Positions 4,393 to 20,463 are shown, counted from the stretch's first letter. The stretch: 20,463 bases of DNA from Candidatus Deferrimicrobiaceae bacterium (GCA_963792415.1 CAWBVY010000002.1:1-20463), one strand, 5' to 3'. Notes: generated by a model from the letters alone, not told the origin. Made by a program: numbers and translations.

Positions 4393-4437
4393 TTCGTAAT
4401 CGGCGGGTCGTCGGTTCCATCCCGACCGTCGGCTCCA
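4393..4437 (+). repeat. attR-like degenerate copy of the tRNA-Thr 3' half
   Basis: TTCGTAATCGGCGGGTCGTCGGTTCCATCCCGACCGTCGGCTCCA vs 1806-1850: 4 mismatches in 45 nt; starts at the anticodon loop and ends at CCA; no 5' half upstream. Confidence 0.9.
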
Positions 4438-8589: not shown

Positions 8590-8676
8590 TTGCTGTTTTC
8601 ACAACTCCATTCCTGGGATACGATATGGACCGGAAGGCACCCGGGGTGCCCCTATAAGTCGGATTTGGGAGGCCGC

Positions 8677-10446
8677 GTGAGTTCGAATCCCCCCAGCATC
8701 TCTCCCCACGCACCCGAAAAGAACGGCTTGTTCCTCGACGACGGTTCCCGTGTCGCCGTGATCGGCGGCGGACCCGCGGGCTCCCTCTTCACCTATTTCC
8801 TCTTCGAGATGGCGGAGCGGATCGGGATGGAACTGGCCGTGGACATCTACGAACCCAGGGACTTCACGAAAAACGCCCCGAGCGGGTGCAACATGTGCGG
8901 GGGCATCGTCTCCGAATCGCTCGTCCAGTTGCTGGCCACCGAGGGGATCAACCTCCCTTCCAGCGTCGTGCAGCGGGGGATCGACTCGTACGTCCTCCAC
9001 ATGGACGTGGGGACCGTGCGGATCGAGCCGACGCGCCGGGAAAAACGGATCGCCGCCGTCTACCGCGGCGGGGGCCCGCGCGGAGTCGTCGAGTCCCGCT
9101 GGGACAGCTTCGATGCGCACCTCCTCAAACTTGCGAAGGAGCGGGGGGCGCACGTTTATCAGGAACGCGTTGAGGGGATCGACCGGAACGGCGGGAAGCC
9201 GCGCATCACGACGAAAAAGGGGACCTCCCCGGAATACGAGCTCCTCGTCGGCGCGGTGGGCGTGAACACGGGCGCCCTCAAACTCTTCGAAGAGATGGGC
9301 GCGGGCTATCGGGCTCCCGGGCTGACGAAGACGTACATCTGCGAGTTGTTTCTCGGAGAGAGGACGATCAAGACGTACTTCGGAAACGCGATGCACATGT
9401 TCCTCCTCAACCTCCCCCGCCTCGAATTCGCCGCGCTGATCCCGAAGGGGGATTACGTGACGATGGTGATGCTGGGCACCGGGATCGACAAATCCCTCGT
9501 CGATGCGTTTTTCTCGGCCCCGGAAGTGCGCAAGTGCTTCCCCTCCGACTGGTCCCCGCCGGCTGATTTCTGCCGCTGCTCCCCCGCCATCAACATCTCG
9601 GCGGCGGTCAAGCCGTTCGCCGACCGGATGGTGCTCATCGGCGACAGCGGCGTGAGCCGTCTCTACAAGGACGGGATCGGCGGGGCGTACCGGACCGCGA
9701 AGGCGGCCGCGAGAACGGCGGTGTTCGAAGGGGTGGCGGAGGAGGATTTCCGGAAAGGCTACCTCCCCGTCTGCCGGTCGCTCTCGGTGGACAACGGGAT
9801 CGGGAAGGTCGTCTTCGGTATCACGACCCTGATCCAGAAAACGACCGTGCTCCGGAAGGGGCTGTTGCGGATGACCGCGGCGGAACAGGATGGAAGCCAG
9901 TGGAAACCACGGATGAGCGACGTCCTGTGGGACACCTTCACGGGGAGCGCCCCGTACAAGGATGTCTTCCGCCGGTCGCTCCACCCCGTTTTTCTCGGAC
10001 ACCTTTTCTACGAAACGTTGACGGGAATGCTCCCCGCGGGCCGGGAGGGCGGGAAGAAGGAGGACAAGGTGCCATTCGGAAAGACGGGCGAACTGGGCAA
10101 GATCTACAATTCGGGGGAAATCATCGTCCGGCAGGGGGACGCCGGCGAGTGCATGTACTTCATCCAGTCCGGCAACGTCGAAGTGATCCACGAGAGCGAC
10201 GGAAAGGAAGTGAAGCTCGCCGAGCTGGGGCACGGGGAGTTCTTCGGGGAGATGGCCCTCTTCGAGAAGGGGGTCCGCTCCGCCACCGTCCGCCCGCTGG
10301 GCGAAGTGCGGGTCCTCTCCGTCGACAAGCGGCTGTTCCTCCGGAAGATCCACGAGGACCCTGCGCTGGCCTTCCGCATCATGCAGAAGATGTCCCGCCG
10401 GATCCGGGACCTCGACAAGGAACTGGGGAATCTGCGTTCGGAGTGA
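8677..10446 (+). CDS. FAD-dependent oxidoreductase (geranylgeranyl reductase-like) fused to a C-terminal cNMP-binding domain (~589 aa)
   Basis: GTG 8677 after GGGAGG; IGGGPAG dinucleotide fold, CNMCGG, 'LIGDSG..LYKDGIGGA'; C-terminal phosphate-binding cassette 'FFGEMALFEKGVRSATV'. Confidence 0.85.
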   Translation: MSSNPPSISPHAPEKNGLFLDDGSRVAVIGGGPAGSLFTYFLFEMAERIGMELAVDIYEPRDFTKNAPSGCNMCGGIVSESLVQLLATEGINLPSSVVQRGIDSYVLHMDVGTVRIEPTRREKRIAAVYRGGGPRGVVESRWDSFDAHLLKLAKERGAHVYQERVEGIDRNGGKPRITTKKGTSPEYELLVGAVGVNTGALKLFEEMGAGYRAPGLTKTYICELFLGERTIKTYFGNAMHMFLLNLPRLEFAALIPKGDYVTMVMLGTGIDKSLVDAFFSAPEVRKCFPSDWSPPADFCRCSPAINISAAVKPFADRMVLIGDSGVSRLYKDGIGGAYRTAKAAARTAVFEGVAEEDFRKGYLPVCRSLSVDNGIGKVVFGITTLIQKTTVLRKGLLRMTAAEQDGSQWKPRMSDVLWDTFTGSAPYKDVFRRSLHPVFLGHLFYETLTGMLPAGREGGKKEDKVPFGKTGELGKIYNSGEIIVRQGDAGECMYFIQSGNVEVIHESDGKEVKLAELGHGEFFGEMALFEKGVRSATVRPLGEVRVLSVDKRLFLRKIHEDPALAFRIMQKMSRRIRDLDKELGNLRSE

Positions 10447-10488: not shown

Positions 10489-11256
10489 TTGAGATTAAAG
10501 GTATTGGGCGCCGCCGGTTCCGAGGTCCCCGGGCACAACTGCCCGGCGTTCCTGATCGACGAGAAGATCCTCCTGGACGCGGGGACGATCGCCCTGTCCC
10601 TGAACATCCGCGAGGAGCACAGCCTGGGGTGGATCCTCCTCACGCACGCCCACCTCGACCACATCAAGGGGATCCCGTTCCTGCTCGACAACCTGGTGAC
10701 CCGCAGCACCGGGAACACCATCACCGTCGCCAGCGGGAAGGACGTCCTGAACGACCTGAAGAAGAACATCTTCAACGACAGGATCTGGCCCGACTTCTCC
10801 CGGATCCCGACGCGCGCACACCCGGTGCTGCGGTACAAGAACATCGGTACCACGCGGCCCTTCCAGATCGACGGGTACCGGATCACGATGGAGAAGGTCC
10901 ACCACACCGTCCCGGCGTACGGGTACATCGTAGAGAAGCCGGGGAACAAGGCAATCGCCTACACGGGCGACACGGGGCCGACCGACCGCTTCTGGGAGAG
11001 GATGGCCGCCCACGACGTGAAGTACCTCATCACGGAGACCTCCTTCCCCAACCGGCTGGAGAAGCTCGCCCTGACGACCGGCCACCTGACCCCCTCCCTG
11101 CTTAAGGGGGAGATCGCGAAGATGTCCCCGCCGCCGGAGAAGATCTTCATCATGCACCTGAAGCCGCAGTTCCTGAATGAGATCGAGATGGAGATCCGGG
11201 CGCTCGATCACGACAACATCGAGTTCCTGAAGGACGGAGAAGTGATCCTGGCCTAG
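10489..11256 (+). CDS. Metallo-beta-lactamase-fold 3',5'-cyclic nucleotide phosphodiesterase (class II-like)
   Basis: TTG start after AAAGGAGG; LDAGT, THAHLDH (HxHxDH), 'IFNDRIWPDF', YTGDTGP, 'ETSFPN', 'GHLTP', 'MHLKP'. Confidence 0.85.
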   Translation: MRLKVLGAAGSEVPGHNCPAFLIDEKILLDAGTIALSLNIREEHSLGWILLTHAHLDHIKGIPFLLDNLVTRSTGNTITVASGKDVLNDLKKNIFNDRIWPDFSRIPTRAHPVLRYKNIGTTRPFQIDGYRITMEKVHHTVPAYGYIVEKPGNKAIAYTGDTGPTDRFWERMAAHDVKYLITETSFPNRLEKLALTTGHLTPSLLKGEIAKMSPPPEKIFIMHLKPQFLNEIEMEIRALDHDNIEFLKDGEVILA

Positions 11257-11263
11257 CCCGCCG

Positions 11264-12748
11264 TCAGGAGATCCCGAAGAATCTCATCAACTTCCGGAGG
11301 AGCGCGTCGTGGAGGGACGACGCTTCGTCGGCAACCTTGCGGACCTGCTGCACGGTCAGGATCTTCTGGAGGCGGTCCCCCAGCGCGGAACTCAAGCCCT
11401 CCAGGACGGACGGGTGCGAACGGATGATCGGAGCGATGGCACCCTTCGAAATCTCGGCGAGCCAGACCTCGTCGACCGCGGCGACCGTCGCGCGGCGCTT
11501 CTCCCCGGTGAGGAGCGACATCTCCCCGAAGAAATCGCCCCCGGACAACGATCCGACCGTCTGCCCGTCCACGGAAACCTCGAGGTTCCCGCACAGGTTG
11601 ATGAAGAGGGAGTCCCCCTCCTCGCCCTGGCGCACGACGATCTCCCTGTTTCCGTAGACGCGCAGCCGGACGTGCGGCAAGAGGGCGTCCAGTTCCTCCT
11701 CGCCCAGGGGGGAAAGGATCTCGGCCCGGCGGAGGCTCCCGCGGATCGCGGCGGCGTCCATCCGGAACGGCGGGGCCGGCTCCTTCCGCACGATCTCCCG
11801 GTGCGGGTACGGGAACGTCTGCCCCTCGCGCGTGACGGCGTACCAGACGCGCCGCAGGACCTTGTCGCGGGCCTCGAGGAGGTTCGCGTACTCCTCGAGG
11901 TAGAAGCGCAGGTTGTAGTGGATGCCGCTGTCCATGAACCCGTCGACCTTCACCCAGGGCGCCGGCGTCGACAGGATCCCCGGCTCGTCCCGGAGGGCGT
12001 CGAGCAGGATCGCCTTCGCCCGTTCGGGGGGGAACGCGTAATCGAGGAGGACCGTGAGGGTGACCGGCGGAGGCGCACCCGGACGGCTCCCGATGGAGTG
12101 CACCACGTTCTGCGTCATGTAAAGGTTCGGGACGTGGACCAGGTGACCCTCCAGGGTCCGGACCGTGGAGTACCGGAACCCCACGTTGACGATCTCGCCC
12201 GTGATGTCCTTTTCCTTGATCCAGACCCACGTGCCGCGCCGGAACGCTTCGTCGGCCTGGATCTGGAAGCCGGAGACGATGTTGGCCAGCGAGGTCTGCA
12301 TCGCGAACGCGAGGGCGGCGGTGAGCACCGTGGTCGTCGTGAGGATCGACGTCATGTTGATTTCGAAGATCACGCGCAGGGCGGTCGCGCCGAAAAACAG
12401 GTACACGCCCAGCAGGAGAATGTCCCGGAGGAACGACGGGACATTCCCCTTCATCCGGCGGTGAAGATAGGTGTCCACGAGCAGGTAGGCGACCAGGTTC
12501 GCCCAGCAGAAGAGCATGATCAGCCCGTGAATCTCCAGTATGTAGGGGGTGTATTCCACCGGGACCTTGAAGGGTCCCACGACGTACGCAAGAAAGATCC
12601 CGAAAAGGGCCGCCTTGATCGTCAACCAGACCTTGGACATGGAAAGGTCCATCCGCGTCACGGCGCGGACGGCGGCGATCAGGAGGAAGAACGCGAGGGG
12701 GACCAGCAGCAGGAGGGTCTCGTTGGACAGTAGGAATTTGAACGTCAT
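11264..12748 (-). CDS. MscS-family mechanosensitive channel with C-terminal cNMP-binding domain (~494 aa; start uncertain)
   Basis: N-terminal TM helices; 'AFAMQTSLANIVSG', 'GEIVNVGFRYST', 'VHVPN', 'FPYP'; C-terminal 'FFGEMSLLTGEKRRATV'. Confidence 0.9.
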   Translation of the reverse strand: MTFKFLLSNETLLLLVPLAFFLLIAAVRAVTRMDLSMSKVWLTIKAALFGIFLAYVVGPFKVPVEYTPYILEIHGLIMLFCWANLVAYLLVDTYLHRRMKGNVPSFLRDILLLGVYLFFGATALRVIFEINMTSILTTTTVLTAALAFAMQTSLANIVSGFQIQADEAFRRGTWVWIKEKDITGEIVNVGFRYSTVRTLEGHLVHVPNLYMTQNVVHSIGSRPGAPPPVTLTVLLDYAFPPERAKAILLDALRDEPGILSTPAPWVKVDGFMDSGIHYNLRFYLEEYANLLEARDKVLRRVWYAVTREGQTFPYPHREIVRKEPAPPFRMDAAAIRGSLRRAEILSPLGEEELDALLPHVRLRVYGNREIVVRQGEEGDSLFINLCGNLEVSVDGQTVGSLSGGDFFGEMSLLTGEKRRATVAAVDEVWLAEISKGAIAPIIRSHPSVLEGLSSALGDRLQKILTVQQVRKVADEASSLHDALLRKLMRFFGIS

Positions 12749-12814
12749 GGCCCGATCCGCTTCTCCAGGGGTGGTGCAGGAATTGTCCGTCATCCGGATG
12801 GAGGAAAGCAAGGC

Positions 12815-12856
12815 CACGACAACAAAGAGTTCCTGAAGGAGGGGGAGGTGATCCTG
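12815..12856 (+). repeat. Direct repeat of the phosphodiesterase 3' end (11209-11250)
   Basis: CACGACAACAAAGAGTTCCTGAAGGAGGGGGAGGTGATCCTG vs CACGACAACATCGAGTTCCTGAAGGACGGAGAAGTGATCCTG: 37/42 identical; HDNKEFLKEGEVIL vs HDNIEFLKDGEVIL. Confidence 0.85.
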
Positions 12857-12866
12857 ATCTGGAAGG

Positions 12867-12898
12867 AAAAGGGGGAGAGCGGCCGGCCGCCCTCCCCC
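12867..12898 (-). terminator. Rho-independent terminator of the FecR-TPR-barrel gene
   Basis: Minus strand GGGGGAGGGCGGC-CG-GCCGCTCTCCCCC followed by TTTT, about 30 nt after the stop at 12930. Confidence 0.7.
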
Positions 12899-12929
12899 CG
12901 AATATCACGTTACCTGCCCTGCTGGTTCC

Positions 12930-15900
12930 TTAAATCGACAGCGTGATCCGGGCGTAAAACATCCTTTGAGGCTGGATCGTAGGATTCGCAATGTCGGTGT
13001 CATAAAACTGGAACTGTTTGTCAAACAAGTTGTTCGCTCCGACCGAAATGAATCCGTACCGTTGCGGCAAGCGATAACTGATTGCGGCATCGACCAGCCA
13101 GAATCGATCACTTCCTGATTCAAAGATTCCCTCGGGTGCATCCAATCGGTTGAACTCTCCGTTTTGATCGACGAATGTGGCTCTCAACATCGCATTCAGC
13201 CCGGAGGGGTGGAAGAAACCGGCGCCAAGAGGCATACGCTGGGTTTTCAGATTTTTTACTCCGATATTAAACTGGTCTTCCCGTTCAATCTTTTCGTAAG
13301 AATAGGATGCGTTCAGAGCAAACCAAGCGTGCGGTGTCCAATATAGATAAGCTCGAGCCATTTTTTCTTTCCAGTCCGCCTTCTCTTCATAAATGGCTGG
13401 AGGGTCAACAGTGCCATCGATGGACGTGTAGGGAACCGTAAGGTCTCTGTGCGTATACTCTGCTCCCCCGTAAATACTGCGTGTGAATTTTTGATCTAAA
13501 CCAATACCATAGCGCCATGATTCCGTTCCATTGGGATCATCGAAAAACTGATTGAACCCAGCCACCTGCGTTGGTTCGAGAGTCTGGTTTGCGACAAGCG
13601 TTCTCTTCAACACCTTGAATGCCGCAGCGCGCAGGGTTGTATCCGGAACCGGATTCCACGTAATTCCAAATTTCGGATTGAACTGGTTTATATCATTATA
13701 TATATCGGATGTTGTATTGTAGAAATCGGCACTTGCCCCAACAGTAAATGTTACGTTCTTTATATAATCCAAATATGAATAAACATACCCATTATAGTGA
13801 TGAACTTTTTGGCTAATTTCCTGTTGATCTTGGAACTCCATGGGAGGATCTATTGGGATCAAAATATCTGTTGTAATTGCCTCATCTGATTTAACTAGAA
13901 AGTATCCACCGCCACTTACGAGTTTGAATTTTTCTGATCGCAATATGTGTTGTGCTTCCACGCCATGAGACCATTGTTTCGTCTGATCATCAAAACCTGT
14001 TACAAAAAAATCACCTGGAGGCGTGAAATTAACTTTATCGTCTATTTTCTTATACATATATGAAATTAGAAGATCTGAACCAGGGTTAAACGAATGATGG
14101 AAACCGAGACGTATTGATGGAGATTTATCTTCTTGTTGAAGGTCTTTGTAATAATCATCCGGGAAGAACCTTAACTGGGTATCATTGTTTTTAATCTTTC
14201 TATATCGATATTCAGCTTGCATGCTTGTTCTTGGAGAAAAATCATACTGAAGAAATGCATTTATAATATCATCCTTTAAATCATTGTTTTCACGAAAACC
14301 ATCCGTTTGATAGTGATATTGCCCAAGACTGAAAGAAACTTTTTTATGGAGGCCGGAGAATACCAGGTCATCGCCCCGCGTGCCGTGTTCACCGAGGATG
14401 CCGTTTGCCTGCAGCGCCACCCGGTTCCGTTCGAAAAGAGGGTTGAACTCACTGAAGGAAAGTCCCGATGGGCCTCCGCCTGCTACAACGAAGAGATTGC
14501 TCTCCGCGAGGTTCGGTTGCAATGGGGAAATATTGGTCGGCTGTAATAATTGAGCTTGCAGTAGTTCGCTCACCCTGGCAATCTCATGCCTCGGCAAAGC
14601 GGAATACGTGTCGGCCAAGAACCGGTGTGCGGAATAGTTGGACGGATCGTAATTGAGGGACCTCCATCCCTCTACCAGGGCGCGCTGTTGAAAACCCAGG
14701 TCCGTGTAAATTCTGGCAAGGCTGGCTTCCCGTGCCGCGACGTCCTGGTCCAGCAACAGGCGCGAACGGTAGACCGCCCGGTTATCATTCAGCTGGATGG
14801 CTTTCTCCATATCCTGCAGTGCCTCGACCGGCCGATTCGTGGTCTGCTTTCCGATCGCACCGTAAAAATACGGCGTGGGATCGAATGGATCCATGCTTTT
14901 TGCCATGTCGTACTGGCCCGCCGCCAGCTTGTCCCGTTTTTCTTCGAAGTAGGCTTTCCCCAGGTAACTGCGGACGAGGGAATTGTTCGGATCGAGGCTC
15001 ATGGCAATCTCGATTTCCCTTCTTCCCTCCTCCAAGTTCCCGTCACGGATTTTCGCCAGGCCCAGGCCCAGCCGCGGGAGAGGATCCGCATCATCGAGCT
15101 TTATCGCTTTTTCAAAGGCCTCCGTGGCCTCCTTCGTCTCGATCCGGGTCAGGTGGGAAAACCCCAGGACCGTCTGCGTCCTCGAGAGGTCGGGGCGCAG
15201 CGCCGCCGCCTTCTTCGCCGAATCCAGGGACATGTCGAGGATGCCGAACGATTGCTGCAACTCGGCCAGCCGGGCCCAGGCGAGGGCGTTTTCGGGCGCC
15301 AGCTTCACGGCTTCCTCCAGGCTGCCCAGCGCTCCCTGGAGGTCGAAGTGCGCCTGCTGGGCATAAGAGAGGGAGATCCGCGCCGTCGCGGATTTCGGGG
15401 CCGACTCCACCGCTTTCCTGGCGATTTCTAGGGCCTTCTCTTTCTCGTTCTGCGTGACGGCGATCATCGCCTGGAGCGCGAAGGCGTCGCTGTTCTTCGG
15501 GTCGAGTTTCTGCGCCTTGTCGATATCCGCCGTTGCCTCGTCGACCCGGCCGACGGTCAGCAGCTGCGACGCGCGTGCGGTGTAGAAGCGCGGATCGTTT
15601 CCGCCTTCCTTCAGATCCTGGGGAGGGGCATCGAGGACGGGCGGATAGTACAGCGCCCACTGGACCGCATCCCGCGGGCGCACGACGACCCGGTACACCG
15701 GGGCATTCCCCGCCTCGGCCACCGCCGACTGCCCCGTGACGACCGGGAGGCCGCCCGCCGCGTTCGATGCCAGCACCTTCCCCTCGAAGACGGTCAGGTC
15801 GGTCTTCCCTTCCTCGACCCGGAGGAAGAACTCCGTCCCCTCCACGCCGGCGTTCACTGTCGCGGTGCGCACCTCGAGGTTCCGCGTGACGCGACTGAAG

Positions 15901-16253
15901 AAGAGCGCGGCCCCGCCGATCATGTCGACCAGGGAGGTCCGCTCGTCCTTCATTCCGCCCAGGGTGACGGTGCTGTTCTGGTCGAGGCGCAGGACAGGGT
16001 GGTTGTACAGCGCGATGTCCGCCCGGCTTTTCCTGTCCGTCCGGACCGTGTCCCCCGGGCAGTACGTCTCGTTGAGTTTCGCCGGTTCCCAGAGGGTTTG
16101 CCCCGCCCTCTTGACCTCCACGACCCCCTGGGCCGAAACCACCTTTCCGGCCCATTTCTCGCACGTAGCCGCTTGCGCGATGCCGGTGCACAGCATCATC
16201 GCGATGGTTGCACATGCCAGAAGACTCACAACGTACGGGTGCGGTCGCTTCAT
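12930..16253 (-). CDS. Outer-membrane receptor: signal peptide, FecR domain, TPR repeats, TonB-dependent-receptor-like beta-barrel (NsrA-like), 1107 aa
   Basis: SD AAGGAGG; signal peptide ending AQA; FecR motifs 'GDTVRT..SRA' and 'VRTATVNAGVEGTEF'; many TPR units (e.g. 'LEEAVKLAPENALAWARLA'); barrel with 'FNPKFGITW' and 'VGANNLFDKQF'. Confidence 0.88.
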   Translation of the reverse strand: MKRPHPYVVSLLACATIAMMLCTGIAQAATCEKWAGKVVSAQGVVEVKRAGQTLWEPAKLNETYCPGDTVRTDRKSRADIALYNHPVLRLDQNSTVTLGGMKDERTSLVDMIGGAALFFSRVTRNLEVRTATVNAGVEGTEFFLRVEEGKTDLTVFEGKVLASNAAGGLPVVTGQSAVAEAGNAPVYRVVVRPRDAVQWALYYPPVLDAPPQDLKEGGNDPRFYTARASQLLTVGRVDEATADIDKAQKLDPKNSDAFALQAMIAVTQNEKEKALEIARKAVESAPKSATARISLSYAQQAHFDLQGALGSLEEAVKLAPENALAWARLAELQQSFGILDMSLDSAKKAAALRPDLSRTQTVLGFSHLTRIETKEATEAFEKAIKLDDADPLPRLGLGLAKIRDGNLEEGRREIEIAMSLDPNNSLVRSYLGKAYFEEKRDKLAAGQYDMAKSMDPFDPTPYFYGAIGKQTTNRPVEALQDMEKAIQLNDNRAVYRSRLLLDQDVAAREASLARIYTDLGFQQRALVEGWRSLNYDPSNYSAHRFLADTYSALPRHEIARVSELLQAQLLQPTNISPLQPNLAESNLFVVAGGGPSGLSFSEFNPLFERNRVALQANGILGEHGTRGDDLVFSGLHKKVSFSLGQYHYQTDGFRENNDLKDDIINAFLQYDFSPRTSMQAEYRYRKIKNNDTQLRFFPDDYYKDLQQEDKSPSIRLGFHHSFNPGSDLLISYMYKKIDDKVNFTPPGDFFVTGFDDQTKQWSHGVEAQHILRSEKFKLVSGGGYFLVKSDEAITTDILIPIDPPMEFQDQQEISQKVHHYNGYVYSYLDYIKNVTFTVGASADFYNTTSDIYNDINQFNPKFGITWNPVPDTTLRAAAFKVLKRTLVANQTLEPTQVAGFNQFFDDPNGTESWRYGIGLDQKFTRSIYGGAEYTHRDLTVPYTSIDGTVDPPAIYEEKADWKEKMARAYLYWTPHAWFALNASYSYEKIEREDQFNIGVKNLKTQRMPLGAGFFHPSGLNAMLRATFVDQNGEFNRLDAPEGIFESGSDRFWLVDAAISYRLPQRYGFISVGANNLFDKQFQFYDTDIANPTIQPQRMFYARITLSI

Positions 16254-16311
16254 TGTCGGCTCCCTCCTTCTTTATCGTTTATCCTTAGCCCTCCGGTTCT
16301 CAGCCGTTCCG

Positions 16312-18575
16312 CTACTTCTTGTCCATGAGAACCACCCCGTCCCACGGTTCCGCGGGGGGGGTGGTGTTGTACACCTCGCACAGGCTTAAGTAATAACGTG
16401 AAGGCTCGTCCTCTCCCAGCGCTTCCAAAGCCCAGCGGAATTTTTCCTTTGCTTCCTCCCAGGATTTCTGCTTGAAGGCGGCAAGAGCCTCGGCGAATAC
16501 CCGGCACCCCTCGCGCTGTTTCCCGTCCGCCTCTTCCAGGCGGCAGATCAGCTCGTGGATCGCGATCGGCATGCTCTTCCCTTTCAACCGGAACGACCCG
16601 AGCTCCCTCGTCAACAGGCCTTCCAGCTGGTCTATCACCTCGGAGGACACCAGGACGCGCGTTCCCAGGTGCTTGTTCATCCCCTCGATCCGTGACGCCG
16701 TGTTGACGATGTCCCCCATGACGGAGTGCTGGTAATGGTCCCCGCCGCCGATGTTCCCGAGGAAGATGTCCCCGTAATGCAGGCCGATCCGGGTGTTGAG
16801 GCGGTGCGGATCGGATGGCCCGTACAGCCGGTGCACGGCCCGGTTGATGTCGATCGCCGCGAGGCACGCCTTGTCCCGAAGGGCCGCGTCGGGGGTCGCC
16901 GAGACCCAGATCGCCAGCATGGAGTCCCCGGCGAGGTTCGATACGACCCCGCCGTGCTCCTTCACCGGCCGGAACATCGTCTCGTAGTACCGGTTCATGA
17001 ACGCGCCGAGCTCCTTGGGGTCCAGGGTCTCCGACAACGTCGTGTAATGCTCCGCGTCCGTGAACAGGCAGACGCCGTAGACGGACTCGCTGACGGCGCC
17101 GAGCTCCCCGAGGTTCTCCACCAGCTGGTCGACGACGTTCTTGGGGAGGTAATGCTCGAAGGCCTTCCGGACCTTCTCCTGCTCCTTCTTCGTGTCGAGG
17201 TAGTTCCAGATCACCCCTCCGAAGAATGCCAGCGGAGCCTGGAAAAAGAGCGGGACCGCCACGGGGTACCAGAGGTTGGCCGTCTTGAACTGAAACCACG
17301 CGAGGGCGAGATAGAGCCCGCTCAAGCCCACAATGCCCAGCGCCGCGATCCCGATATGGAAATACCTGCCGAGGAACCCCATGACCACGCCCCAGAGGAC
17401 AACGATGAAGACCAGGGGAAGCAGCCCGAGCGGCTTCACCGATGTATCGTCGAGGATGTTGGAGAATGCGGTGGCGGAGATCTCCACCCCGCCGATGAAG
17501 ATTCCGTTCGCCTGGGAGAATACCGTGTAGAAGCTGTCCTTCCGCTCCGCCAGCATCGCCTCCGACAGCCCCACGAAGACGGCCTTCTCCTTCAGGTCGA
17601 TCTTCCGGTCCCCCGCCGCACCGTCGCGGATCTGGAGCGCCTGGTGATACGGAATCGTCGTGATTGTGCGAGGCCTGGACCGTAGTAGTTGATGAACCGG
17701 TTGTTCGACCCCTCGTACACGCGGATCAGCGCCTCGACCAGCCGTTGCCTGCCCGCATCGCCGGCGGGCGCCTTCGAACGTTCGAGCTCGCGCCGCATTC
17801 TCTCCGCGATCAACGGATCGGCCAGGAACACCTCCCGGATCTTTTTCATCAGGTCCCTGACGGTTCCCGTGGCGATGGCCGCCGACATGTCGCGGGGGAA
17901 CTTCCTCGCCTGCGCCGGGCTCGCCTTCTCGAGCAGGCGGATGAAATCCCCGTAGGCCGTCGCCCCGTAGATCTGGAGCATCACCATCGGAACGGAGGGA
18001 GAGTCCCCTGCGCCCGGCTCGAACGTGAAGAACTGGCTCACCTTGAAAGGGATCCGGGGAAGCGTGAACGGCGCCGTGGCAGCGGCGGCATCGGTGAAAA
18101 GCTCGATCGGCGGCACCACCTTGACGACGTTGTGGCTCGAGGACTCGGGAGACCCGTCCGCGTCCGGCAGAAGAATGTCCTTGGTCCGGATCGGCTCGGT
18201 GAGGACGACGTTTCGCGCCTTTTTCATGGCGTTCGCAAAGGCGACGTCGTCCTTCGCCACCCGCGGCTCGATGAAATGGAGGTCGAAGGATACGACCCTG
18301 GCGCCTTCCCGGGCCAGGATCTCCGTCAGGCGCGCATGGAGAGAGCGGGGCCACTTGTCGGGGTTGTCCGGGATGCCAAGCTGCTCGGAGGACTCCCTGT
18401 CAATGCTGATGACGACGGCTTCCGGAGGTGGCCTGGCCGCTCCTCTGAACCTGAACAGCAGGCCGAGACCTGTGTCTTCCTCGAGACCCATCGCGAATCG
18501 GAAAGGGCTTGCGACCAACCCGACGACCCCGACGAGGAAGCCGAGGATGACGGCTTTCAACAAGCGGGATTTCAC
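16312..18575 (-). pseudogene. CHASE2-domain class III adenylate/guanylate cyclase, split by a frameshift at ~17674-17675 (~753 aa if repaired)
   Basis: 5' part (GTG 18575; 'VVISIDRES', 'WPRSLHA', 'FDLHF', 'INYYGP') and 3' part ('PRTITTIPY', 'VFVG', 'GVEISAT', TM helices, 'LFTD', 'GDSML', 'RIGLHYG', 'GDIVNTASRIEG') are in different frames. Removing 2 nt gives NYYGPPRTI. Could be a sequencing/assembly error. Confidence 0.8.
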
Positions 18576-18666
18576 CGTAACACCAACATGTAAATTCGCA
18601 CCGATTCACCAACACGACTGGCGGAAAAACCGGGAAACCGGGCAGAGGATAACAACAACGAAACAT

Positions 18667-18700
18667 GGTCAGGCAGGGCCATTTCTAGCCCTGCCCGACC
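18667..18700 (-). terminator. Hairpin between the secreted-protein gene and the cyclase gene (terminator or transcript-stabilising stem)
   Basis: Minus strand GGTCGGGCAGGGC-8 nt loop-GCCCTGCCTGACC (13 bp with one G-U), followed by ATGTTTCGTTGTTGTT. Confidence 0.55.
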
Positions 18701-18770
18701 CTTTCGAATCGTAGAAACAACGCGTAATTACGAACAATTTCAGACAATAATCCATATATTCGTTATTACC

Positions 18771-19661
18771 TTAATTCAGTCTTATACAAACTCCTGTCCT
18801 TGGATTACAGTAATAAGTTGAACCTGCAGAATTATCATCAGATATAACAACGGATGGGCAATCCTGTCCTGGAACTGAAATGTCGGCTAAGACCCCTTGA
18901 GAAAACGTTAATGAACCAAATGGAACATATTTAGGATCACCAGGTCCAATTACTCCTGCTGCTGGATTAGAACAGTCCTTTAGCACTTGCTGACACTGTG
19001 TTGCCGGGTCTGTTACAGTACAAAAATCATATTCAACACCGCCTGGCGATACTCCCGAATATCTCGTTAAGGAAGTAACAACTCCTTGCGCGCGGGGGGG
19101 AGGGGGTTCCGCGCAACCGGGACCTTTGATGTTTCTGCAATAATAGTAGGCATTGCCCGACTTGAATTGCATCGGGACGCCCCAATCCGTCGGGATCGGC
19201 ACGGCGTTGTCCGTGCCGAAACCAAAGGTGGTCGAACCGATGCTGGTGACCGTCACCAGGTCGTTATAAACGTCCCACACCCCGAAACCATTCCAGTTGC
19301 TAGATAAGCCGGTAGCGGGGGCTGAGTAAAGCTGAAAGGTTTCACCGGGAATCGCGGAATAATTATTACCGGTATAGCCGATGGAAGGGATTGAATCGCA
19401 GGCGGGGACGAGGATAGCAAACTGGGTACCCTTGGTCGCGAGTCCACTGATGGTGTATTTCCATATTGTCTTCCCGCCTTCGGTGTAGGGCTCAGTGGCA
19501 ACCACAGTAGCCCCAATGGGCTCCCCAGCTGAATTGACCAAGGTACAGGTAGGTGTGGGTTGTGGGATCGCAGCAGCAATCCCCGCGCCGAGAAACAAGG
19601 CCAACATAACTGTCAATGCCGCTACCGCAACCGGTGCCGATTTTATCCTTCGCTTTTCCAT
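18771..19661 (-). CDS. Secreted cysteine-rich protein of unknown function (~296 aa, 10 Cys)
   Basis: ATG 19661 after GAAGGAGGTGG; Sec signal peptide (MEKRRIK...LALFLGAGIAAA); beta-rich N domain with 4 Cys, EPPPPR linker, C domain with 6 Cys ending YYCNPRTGVCIRLN. Confidence 0.8.
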   Translation of the reverse strand: MEKRRIKSAPVAVAALTVMLALFLGAGIAAAIPQPTPTCTLVNSAGEPIGATVVATEPYTEGGKTIWKYTISGLATKGTQFAILVPACDSIPSIGYTGNNYSAIPGETFQLYSAPATGLSSNWNGFGVWDVYNDLVTVTSIGSTTFGFGTDNAVPIPTDWGVPMQFKSGNAYYYCRNIKGPGCAEPPPPRAQGVVTSLTRYSGVSPGGVEYDFCTVTDPATQCQQVLKDCSNPAAGVIGPGDPKYVPFGSLTFSQGVLADISVPGQDCPSVVISDDNSAGSTYYCNPRTGVCIRLN

Positions 19662-20003
19662 CTCCACCTCCTTCTCCAACAAGAGAAATTGTTGGCGCGC
19701 CGTCAGTCCCGACACGCATGAACCCATCCGAATCCCTTCGCCTCCTTCCCTTTCTGTCATCGATTAACGAGACTTCAGGCGTTCTCGTGAGGCAAACACC
19801 CCCGGCAAAACGCAGTTTTTAAATTGTGTTGTGTTTGCATGGACACCCCCTCAATGACATATTGGGGCCGGATTCAAAAATTGTCCGCGTTTGATTGACG
19901 TCGTCCGGCGCCAACGTCATAGAGCATTACTGGCGTTAACCGGTTTATTTAATAGTAAATAGTAAATTTTCACACAAAATATGCAATTGGAACGAAGATT
20001 TTA

Positions 20004-20020
20004 AGCAATTACGGCGCCAA
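20004..20020 (-). promoter_or_regulatory. Candidate sigma54 (-24/-12) promoter facing the secreted-protein gene
   Basis: Minus strand TTGGCGCCGTAATTGCT vs consensus YTGGCACGRNNNTTGCW (2 mismatches, GG and GC correctly spaced); would imply a leader of about 330 nt. Confidence 0.45.
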
Positions 20021-20463
20021 TACGGAAAAACCGCTTAACCCATTGAAAAAGAAAGCCATTTTATTCGGTAACCCCAGGAGCGGAAGCAGAGAGCCACCCG
20101 AAGGTGGCGATAATATTACCGAAACCATGAAAAAGAATACCCTTTTGAACCGGGCAGGGCCCATGTCCAAACGACCGGCAGTTTTCTGTTGGACAAGCGC
20201 GGAACAGACTTTTACGGGCGAATTACCTTGCCATCTCCGGTTCGGATTCGGGCAGTTGAACCCACCCAACCATTCGCGATTCAAATTTAAAACACAGTCC
20301 CGGATATTGTCAAGAATAAATTCTCGGAAATGGAAATTATTTCATTTCTGTTCAACTCCGTGAGGCAACGTTACAAATTCTGCGATAGAGGCGGAACCCC
20401 TCCTCCCGTATAGCCACCTCTTCCCTCGCCAGAGGATCGGCAATGGCCGCTTCTTTCACCACG

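Follow-up and report, generated by a model that had tools for sequence, protein, structure and literature searches.

A CHASE2 cyclase locus in which an outer-membrane sensor barrel and a cysteine-rich secreted partner appear to be exchanged together

Here, we examined a signaling locus of Candidatus Deferrimicrobiaceae bacterium (GCA_963792415.1), located on a contig of 20,463 nucleotides (nt) (CAWBVY010000002.1:1-20463) that we refer to as C2 and that constitutes, in its full length, the window of this study. The assembly to which it belongs comprises 2.84 Mb in 11 contigs, with a GC content of about 64%. The core of the locus consists of the genes for an outer-membrane sensor, P0001, here called the receptor, a CHASE2 class III nucleotidyl cyclase, and a secreted cysteine-rich protein, P0005, here called the partner (Table 1). 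The genes are transcribed from the minus strand in the order partner, cyclase, receptor, and MscS-type channel. The partner was also represented by an open reading frame (ORF) of 329 amino acids (aa), P0003, which is a longer form of P0005 with a start at position 19760, the database copy beginning at the methionine of the MEKRR motif. A previous examination of the window, made from the sequence alone and here called the sequence-only reading, had proposed that AT-rich segments in the receptor barrel and in the C-terminal domain of the partner are exchanged specificity modules.

Table 1. Features of the locus, with positions counted from the first nucleotide of the window. AF2, AlphaFold2; pLDDT, predicted local distance difference test score; GC3, GC content at third codon positions; TPR, tetratricopeptide repeat; cNMP, cyclic nucleotide monophosphate.
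Feature	Position	Strand	Basis
Outer-membrane sensor P0001, 1107 aa	12930..16253	-	Pfam, AF2, Foldseek, BLASTP
FecR-like β-sandwich of P0001, aa 36-188, periplasmic	15690..16148	-	Pfam, AF2; 90-100% identical to C1 copy
TPR array of P0001, aa 221-527, helical repeats	14673..15593	-	Pfam, AF2
Linker of P0001, aa ~528-611	14421..14672	-	Entropy 0.22-0.79, most conserved stretch of the family; pLDDT 25-46
β-barrel of P0001, aa 612-1107, ~22 strands, exchanged module	12933..14420	-	AF2 strands aa 612-1106, Foldseek
AT-richest core of the barrel, ~aa 636-864	13660..14346	-	GC edges; GC3 0.25-0.33
CHASE2 class III nucleotidyl cyclase, in 2 frames here	16312..18575	-	Pfam CHASE2 + Guanylate_cyc
Secreted cysteine-rich partner P0005, 296 aa, 10 Cys	18771..19661	-	No Pfam family
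Partner N-domain, Ig-like β-sandwich	19110..19556	-	AF2, pLDDT 78
Partner C-domain, disulfide-rich, AT-rich, after the EPPPPR linker	18774..19091	-	GC3 ~0.2, family divergence
MscS-type channel with C-terminal cNMP-binding domain, likely effector	11264..12817	-	Pfam MS_channel_2nd, MS_channel_3rd, cNMP_binding
Metallo-β-lactamase-fold protein, class-II cAMP phosphodiesterase-like	10489..11256	+	Pfam Lactamase_B_2 3.7e-16, PDEase_II 2.6e-10
cNMP-binding-domain protein	8590..10446	+	Pfam cNMP_binding 7.9e-24
Terminator-like hairpin in the gap between partner gene and cyclase	18667..18700	-	15-pair stem
Terminator-like hairpin directly 3' of the receptor stop	12870..12899	-	13-pair stem
Promoter-like site upstream of the partner gene	20284..20313	-	10/12 consensus matches; pattern match only

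The receptor is built from a signal peptide, a FecR-like β-sandwich, a TPR array, a conserved linker, and a plug-less barrel resembling those of TonB-dependent receptors. Pfam searches identified FecR at aa 68-160 (2.1e-14), several TPR families, and TonB_dep_Rec_b-barrel (1.1e-11), with no plug family (the Plug accession is presumably PF07715) at E ≤ 0.01. The AF2 model had a pLDDT of 73.8, and the nearest solved folds in Foldseek searches were TonB-dependent receptors, of which FptA was the best match (1.8e-18), with FptA, FpvA, OprC, FhuA, and FecA all in the range of 1e-18 to 1e-15. The protein shares the 22-strand barrel with TonB-dependent transporters but lacks their N-terminal plug domain, and it differs from FecR-type anti-sigma factors in that it starts with a signal peptide and that a scan of 23 ORFs yielded no sigma-factor family. 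It resembles NsrA-type sensors in having a signal peptide followed by FecR, TPRs in between, a C-terminal barrel of about 500 aa, an adjacent CHASE2 cyclase, and sequence homology. The AT-richest core of the barrel coincides with the most variable segment in the family as a whole, with the highest entropy at aa 721-810, and contains very long hairpins at aa 751-828, predicted by AF2 as strands at 751-772, 776-799, and 805-828. The only other barrels of the same type as in the window belong to P0008 and P0009 from other metagenomes, with 80-82% identity.

The base composition changes abruptly within both the receptor gene and the partner gene. The GC counts per 60 nt on which the sequence-only reading was built were exact, being 46/60 at 15661-15720 and 21/60 at 14161-14220 in the receptor gene, and 37/60 at 19201-19260 and 23/60 at 18901-18960 in the partner gene. 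The sharpest switch in the receptor gene had been placed near 14345, in agreement with the largest step between flanking 150-nt windows in the interval 13000-15500, which was 0.30 at 14346; a second edge was located at 13660 (-0.25). The switch in the partner gene had been placed at the EPPPPR linker, and we found a step of 0.16 at 19078, beside the stretch that encodes EPPPPR (19092-19109); the codons of the YYC-x6-C hairpin correspond to nt 18786-18815. Both frames stayed open through the AT-rich parts, as had been read. For the intervening cyclase gene, the high GC content was borne out (GC3 of 0.72-0.97), but the gene is not a single open frame here, being broken by a 2-bp insertion at 17678-17679 in comparison with the copy on another contig of the assembly, C1, which is intact and encodes 752 aa (C1:205523-207781). 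The insertion is missing from a contig of the sequencing run X1 and therefore represents either an error of the assembly or a mutation private to the window contig.

GC3 values in the receptor gene decreased from 0.82-0.95 at aa 61-360 to 0.25-0.33 at aa 631-870 and were 0.45-0.57 at aa 871-1107, while those in the partner gene (329-aa numbering) were 0.55-0.75 at aa 1-210 and 0.18-0.22 at aa 241-329. Steps in GC content of at least 0.30 were observed at only 16 of 56,698 sampled positions in the 2.84-Mb assembly, and 167 of 18,422 windows of 300 nt had a GC content of 0.40 or less. Most of the latter windows cluster in a segment of about 58 kb, C1:346-404 kb, presumably an extensive island of foreign DNA that has nothing to do with the locus described here. 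A count of ORFs with GC3 mosaics (143/2034) was also considered as a genome control but was dropped, since in a genome this rich in GC, long ORFs in the wrong frame can look like mosaics, and plain GC steps were used instead.

Such a shift could in principle be an artefact, caused either by chimeric assembly or by the amino acid make-up of barrels and cysteine-rich domains. Although the contig is short and contains one frame break, and although barrels contain much Asn, Tyr, Lys, and Phe, we consider this explanation extremely improbable. The composition shift is not an effect of amino acid usage, because third codon positions fall the most, from 0.9 to 0.25, and the barrels of the other copies have GC3 values of 0.62-0.90. 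Furthermore, proteins with 80-82% identity over the barrel are present in other metagenomes, and the AT-rich barrel and the partner gene were covered by contigs from 4 public runs in 4 studies (estuary, sediment, freshwater) with at least 95% and mostly at least 99% identity; parts left uncovered in single runs, such as 19848-20163, carry no meaning. The mosaic is not an assembly artefact, because contigs from independent runs cross both switches without mismatch; record 29 of run X7 (14262-14492, 0 other letters) spans the switch at 14346 and record 16 of run X2 (18937-19209, 0 other letters) spans the switch at the linker. A diversity-generating retroelement was also considered and rejected, since the interval 11000-20463 contained no repeat longer than 42 nt and none that pairs with the AT-rich blocks, and since no reverse transcriptase was found in the Pfam scans.

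A second version of the locus was identified next to the same tRNA-Thr gene on contig C1 (187.8-208 kb), and a third copy on contig C3. The window and C1 were 99.7% identical over 10.9 kb, with 33 mismatches, and the cyclase segment at nt 16400-18020 was about 100% identical. The 2 receptors had an identity of 0.91 in the N-terminal part, whereas the identity was only 0.36 in the barrel at aa 690-860 and 0.57 at aa 861-1107, and the DNA encoding the barrel aligned only in patches of 70-75%. The C1 barrel is not AT-rich (GC3 of 0.62-0.78). The P0003 gene is missing from C1, which contains 36 nt in place of 1.35 kb, and no target-site duplication was found at this indel; an 18-nt repeat, D13, is not located at the junctions. 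Instead, C1 contains a different gene for a secreted protein of 239 aa with 9 cysteines and a GC3 of 0.41, located between the receptor and the channel genes and absent from the window; no homolog of this protein was found in 60 related genomes. We interpret the 2 versions as different sensor heads on a nearly identical chassis within one assembly. Contig C3 (19,733 nt; loci L005-L009 and L015-L018) is colinear with C1:187770-207545, but its alignment is interrupted by 38 gaps over 13.2 kb and by 187 over 6.6 kb, with many genes broken, as would be expected of a C1-type haplotype contig with low coverage and poor polishing.

To study how barrels and partners vary together, we used 69 loci for which both sequences were available, among which 20 receptor pairs had an identity of at least 0.80 in the N-terminal part. 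The barrels were similar in 13 of these pairs, with identities of 0.63-0.90 in the variable (V) region, and the partners were homologous in all 13 (0.44-0.88). The barrels of the remaining 7 pairs were dissimilar, with identities of 0.34-0.40 in the V region and 0.55-0.60 in the C-terminal barrel, and none of the 7 yielded a BLASTP match between the partners. In 6 of these 7 pairs, tblastn searches of the whole locus found no trace of the other partner; the exception is C1/L027, with a faint match of 29%, where the partners are remote profile homologs. The 7 pairs represent at least 4 lineages (the Deferrimicrobium trio, L044 versus L032/L042, L052 versus L067, and L066 versus L078), and the break in identity was located at aa ~600-690, just after the conserved linker, in all of them. 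The reverse case was observed in L046/L053, in which the identity was 0.67 in the N-terminal part, 0.86-0.87 in the barrel, and 0.51 in the partner. Residuals of barrel identity relative to N-part identity were also higher for pairs with the same partner family (mean of +0.139 vs. -0.002, a difference reached by 0 of 2000 permutations), but this test was set aside in favor of the pairs with N-part identity of at least 0.80, given that the two identities are not linearly related and that pairs from one family are more closely akin.

These comparisons, in the 2 versions within the assembly as well as in several other lineages, are in line with the proposal of the sequence-only reading that the barrel is an exchanged module and that the cysteine-rich secreted gene varies with it, while FecR, TPR, and cyclase are kept. 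They show that the barrel and the partner gene have been exchanged as a cassette with a fixed boundary, with the effectors likewise retained, and that the AT-rich blocks are footprints of cassette exchange by homologous recombination. It was also noted from the identity profiles of the swapped pairs that the recombination breaks sit at the 3' side of the linker. The linker is a candidate for a mini-plug or docking segment that would fold only with the partner, and a candidate homology anchor for the barrel swaps.

The family of the window partner is rare, with 3 proteins among 5.8 billion clusters, including that of the window itself, and 17 representatives among 1.84 billion. No relatives were found in 60 related genomes with a single protein query, in 400 genomes of the phylum with profile A2, or among the 97 pattern matches obtained with profile A3 in a scan of species-genome contigs. 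Nor did P0003 match known folds; Foldseek yielded no hit in the PDB at E ≤ 0.001, a wide search with VIA-align retrieved only generic β-sandwich matches to the N-domain (Z ≤ 7.4), the C-domain being barely tested, the best profile match to PDB sequences had E = 1, and the best score in the ESM Atlas was 0.82, which is below the level of a lead.

The partner has a signal-peptide-like N-terminus and is encoded directly before the cyclase, and with its length and cysteine content it shows every feature of the receptor-linked partner class. The sequence-only reading predicted that the secreted gene should be linked to such receptors elsewhere, and its family was found to be linked to such receptors or to CHASE2 proteins in other genomes. 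A P0003 homolog was encoded directly before a near-identical CHASE2 cyclase in both of the 2 metagenome contigs with context. In profile comparisons, P0003 aligned over its full length with the partners encoded in L031/L037 (hhalign 99.6%, E 1.3e-23), where the order of receptor, partner, and CHASE2 protein is a rotation of that in the window, and its N-domain aligned with the partners in L046, L053, L079, and L095 (hhalign 98.4%). Cysteine and motif columns were common to both sides of the profile alignment. Judged by these profiles, P0003 is a remote homolog of the partners encoded beside receptors in other genomes. Complex prediction for the barrel at aa 571-1107 (A4) with mature P0003 (A2) gave 0.39, 0.00, and 0.00 in the individual runs, which counts neither for nor against binding.

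Members of the P0003 family diverge more in the C-domain than in the N-domain, with a mean pairwise identity of 0.21 versus 0.33 and a lower value for the C-domain in 105 of 120 pairs, and one family member had a conserved N-domain (0.51) combined with an unrelated C-domain (0.14). GC3 falls in the C-domain in all 4 family members for which DNA was examined. The proposal that the C-domain is the specificity module is supported in terms of variability and AT shift, but not as a description of the swapped unit, which is usually the whole partner gene.

The receptor type is widespread, as the barrel part of P0001 has matches in more than 3,753 proteins of the database, and 577 loci with a FecR-TPR-barrel receptor were confirmed in one scan, including those of Desulfobacterota, Nitrospirota, Rokubacteria, Binatia, Gamma- and Betaproteobacteria, and others. 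Among relatives its distribution is patchy, with a receptor in 10 of 60. We surveyed the best 80 of the 577 loci, in 72 of which the ORF located directly after the receptor could be evaluated. By a crude in-house rule for signal peptides, applied to ORFs without gene calling, this ORF was signal-peptide-like in 35 of the 72 loci and also contained at least 5 cysteines (6 to 26) in 31. The combination of a signal peptide, at least 5 cysteines, and a length of 150-470 aa was found in 30/72 post-receptor ORFs versus 10/234 other flanking ORFs of that size. No Pfam family was identified in any of the 46 downstream proteins scanned, which formed many BLASTP clusters that profile comparison joins into at least 2 superfamilies. 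It appears from these comparisons that the swapping of barrel plus partner recurs in related systems of many bacterial phyla.

A CHASE2-type protein is usually encoded near the receptor, either before it or after the partner. The cyclase was located directly upstream of the receptor in 28 of the 72 loci, and a cysteine-rich partner with a signal peptide followed the receptor in 28/44 loci without an upstream cyclase versus 3/28 loci with one. In the loci with the cyclase directly upstream, the post-receptor ORF often encodes 65-120 aa without a signal peptide or Pfam match, and belongs to conserved small families such as L051/L064/L076 (~9329-9550, 80-87% identical), L039/L065/L078, L054/L087/L090, and L081/L103; these small proteins may represent a further type of partner or the precursor of a peptide. 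In L031, L037, and L043, the gene after the partner matches only cyclase residues 1-463 (CHASE2 and membrane part, 53-56%), and the CHASE2 sensor there is therefore joined to another output domain. We also noted small ORFs that share the motif Y-I-(I/V)-R-I-Y-R-R in L010 (638-898), L011 (1081-1473), L020 (2870-3187), and L025 (5313-5630); those in L020 and L025 precede a regulator-like ORF of about 1000 aa, and pairs resembling HEPN/nucleotidyltransferase, named by sequence reading, are located upstream in L010 and L011.

The AT shift in the window is the extreme of a broader trend. Partner genes were AT-shifted relative to the receptor N-part with a median of -0.12 and values below -0.1 in 41 of 72 loci, and the V region of the barrel with a median of -0.06 and values below -0.1 in 24 of 72; the minimum elsewhere was -0.33, as compared to about -0.58 in the window. 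The 2 shifts correlate with each other (Spearman 0.45, uncorrected for kinship).

One explanation for these patterns is that the barrel is replaced under diversifying selection from phages, bacteriocins, or grazers, and that the small secreted gene is carried along or accessory, with no role in sensing. TonB-type barrels are classic receptors for phages and bacteriocins, the structural neighbors of P0001 include the FpvA-pyocin S2 and FhuA-phage T5 pb5 complexes, and the hypervariable part coincides with the long protruding hairpins; adjacency would explain co-transfer, and the patchiness of the system among the relatives fits such a history. However, hitch-hiking does not account for the roughly 10-fold enrichment of cysteine-rich signal-peptide proteins at the post-receptor position across phyla, nor for the partner superfamily remaining linked despite changes in gene order, since it is encoded before the cyclase in the window and after the receptor in L031/L037 and the L046 group. 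In the window, moreover, the partner indel and the barrel swap form 2 separate tracts that flank DNA of about 100% identity. We consider this explanation unlikely.

The sequence-only reading knew of no described system of this form, which does not hold for the core of the locus. In Sinorhizobium meliloti, the CHASE2 cyclases CyaK and CyaD1/CyaD2 require NsrA in order to respond to a protein signal, the ribosomal protein uL2; NsrA is described as located in the outer membrane, its N-part being periplasmic and its C-terminal barrel spanning aa 600-1200 (PMC7529298, PMC13001267). A locus on a Sinorhizobium megaplasmid encodes a FecR and TPR protein of 1224 aa (L013:5959-9633) followed directly by a CHASE2 cyclase. 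BLASTP matched P0001 to this protein with 3e-27 over FecR and TPR and 3e-6 in the barrel, at an identity of about 26%. From the published descriptions, we infer that this unannotated ORF is nsrA. The receptor and cyclase form the same pair in both loci, although in reversed order, with the cyclase first in the window. A cluster of similar functions is found in Campylobacterota, where genes for a CHASE2 cyclase, a phosphodiesterase, a FecR protein of the outer membrane, and a protein with TPRs were proposed to form a single, horizontally spread pathway; FecR and TPR are separate proteins there, and the accessible part of that article mentions neither a cysteine-rich partner nor barrel swapping (PMC9239204). 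The core, as judged by homology, is thus of a known kind, namely an envelope sensor of the NsrA/CHASE2-cyclase type.

Other systems resemble the locus in part. Like FecA-FecR-FecI, it pairs a 22-strand TonB-type barrel with a periplasmic FecR domain, and FecA is among the structural matches to P0001 (Foldseek 4.4e-15), but the FecR domain of P0001 is fused to the barrel, no plug, anti-sigma part, or gene for an extracytoplasmic function (ECF) sigma factor was found in the window, and the output is a cyclase. Large outer-membrane barrels with an adjacent, co-diversifying partner that serves as cap or plug are known from SusC-SusD and LptD-LptE. The locus has no homology to these systems, their partners are lipoproteins, and they serve transport rather than signaling, so that the resemblance is an analogy only. 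The BiofilmReg operon of Burkholderia combines a LysM-FecR protein with a CHASE2 histidine kinase, and Magnetospirillum encodes MtxA with a CHASE2 cyclase; these are likewise secreted FecR, Ig-like, or TPR proteins beside a CHASE2 sensor, but are soluble in the periplasm and have no barrel (PMC5192318, PMC4439547). In the mainly open-access literature that we searched, as far as its accessible text extends, we did not find cysteine-rich partner genes or barrel swapping described for CHASE2, FecR, or NsrA systems (including PMC5498481, PMC5192318, PMC9239204, PMC13001267, PMC7529298, PMC8195603, and PMC4439547). The new part, as far as these searches went, is the modularity of the barrel and its cysteine-rich partner.

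By analogy with NsrA and FecA-FecR, the outer-membrane receptor would relay a cue from the outside to the periplasmic CHASE2 domain of the inner-membrane cyclase. The resulting cNMP would be read by the cNMP-gated MscS-type channel and the cNMP-binding protein, and cleared by the phosphodiesterase-like enzyme. The partner would be exported by Sec, become disulfide-bonded, and form with the barrel a matched, two-protein sensor head, in which it may dock on or in its cognate, plug-less barrel as a lid, plug, or co-receptor in the manner of SusD on SusC or LptE in LptD. Such a head would set which external cue switches the cyclase, and different heads would circulate horizontally, which in this proposal explains the foreign base composition. 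A docking co-receptor, lid, or plug is favored because the barrel is plug-less, because whole barrels differ and not only their loops, and because no exporter is encoded nearby. Taken as a whole, this explanation, with a sensor relay, an exchanged barrel and partner, and a docking partner, seems to us somewhat better than an even bet.

Alternatively, the secreted protein could be the extracellular ligand, a pheromone or a self/kin tag, of the co-encoded barrel, with polymorphic cognate pairs read out through cNMP. In NsrA, the characterized relative, it is the barrel that perceives a protein signal (PMC7529298, PMC13001267), and the variability of the partner C-domain relative to the N-domain would suit a ligand. 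The partner also evolved faster than the barrel in all 5 comparisons made by hand of pairs with a signal-peptide, cysteine-rich partner, for example with identities of 0.89-0.90 in the barrel versus 0.65 in the partner for L033/L047, and 0.78-0.93 versus 0.44 for L077/L083. Furthermore, the partner gene of the window stands apart, with a promoter-like site and a terminator-like hairpin of its own. In run X5, contig depths were 17-30 for the shared parts and 2-5 for the window-specific parts, which is a weak hint that several alleles coexist in that community, although depth cannot properly rank the parts. On the other hand, no outer-membrane export system is encoded nearby, the differences between barrels include the membrane strands and not only the outward loops, and many loci contain no such partner; nor does anything point to kin recognition in particular. 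A ligand role for the partner is therefore judged to be rather improbable. We are equally doubtful of its most far-reaching form, in which cells would secrete or display the partner, the matching barrel allele alone would respond, and a cNMP pulse would gate the MscS-type channel, as a self/non-self or pheromone system spread over many phyla with alleles shuffled as cassettes.

Several observations weigh against the docking of a matched, exchanged partner. The co-variation could reflect plain linkage, because the partner gene mostly abuts the 3' end of the barrel-coding region so that one tract carries both, and some of the receptor pairs are not independent of each other. In the window, about 4.5 kb separate the partner gene from the barrel, with the conserved N-part and the cyclase in between, and the partner gene is set off by its own terminator-like hairpin. 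At long range, barrels from loci with P0003-like partners are no nearer to the window barrel than others, ranking 5, 9, 19, 20, 23, and 66 of 73. No partner gene was found at the Sinorhizobium locus, and in the survey, with its crude calls of signal peptides, 37 of 72 loci had no signal-peptide partner directly after the receptor. The donor of the AT-rich DNA was not identified, the nearest barrels beyond the pair with 80-82% identity being at most 56% identical. Finally, C2 may be either a second copy or a variant from another strain binned with this one; beyond the tRNA, its flank on the left is unlike that of C1.

The neighborhood of the locus was interpreted as a cyclic-nucleotide signaling unit, because it contains genes for the cyclase, a cNMP-gated channel, a phosphodiesterase-like enzyme, and a cNMP-binding protein, of which the latter 2 run divergently on the plus strand. 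We noted a 42-nt direct repeat (88%), one copy of which forms the 3' end of the phosphodiesterase-like gene (11209-11250) while the other is located just upstream of the gene for the MscS-cNMP channel, near the receptor terminator (12815-12856). In locus G027 of the same genus, the phosphodiesterase gene adjoins the receptor and partner genes without a channel gene. Because of this arrangement and the repeat, the channel gene may be an insertion that duplicated the 3' end of the phosphodiesterase-like gene. An Rfam scan of the window yielded a tRNA as the sole match; this tRNA-Thr (CGT) gene at 1776-1850 marks the left edge of the locus common to C1, C2, and C3. The 3' part of this gene recurs as a 45-nt copy (91%) located 2.5 kb away at 4393-4437, and the segment at ~1.4-4.9 kb has a GC content of only about 50% and contains small ORFs without Pfam families, which looks like a small element integrated at tRNA-Thr. 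C1 and C3 hold an additional 2.2 kb near the tRNA-Thr gene, with an ORF of 435 aa, that is absent from the window.

The question of what CHASE2 domains and NsrA-like outer-membrane proteins sense has been addressed for one example in one symbiont. The family examined here appears to contain a widespread third component outside Pfam, in the form of a fast-evolving, cysteine-rich secreted protein, and the barrel and this partner behave as a unit that can be exchanged, its recombination boundary being fixed where the barrel starts. Natural cognate and non-cognate heads on an identical FecR-TPR-cyclase chassis would provide testable pairs for signaling from the outer membrane to the cyclase, and the system may be a case of allele-specific recognition among sediment bacteria that have not been cultured.

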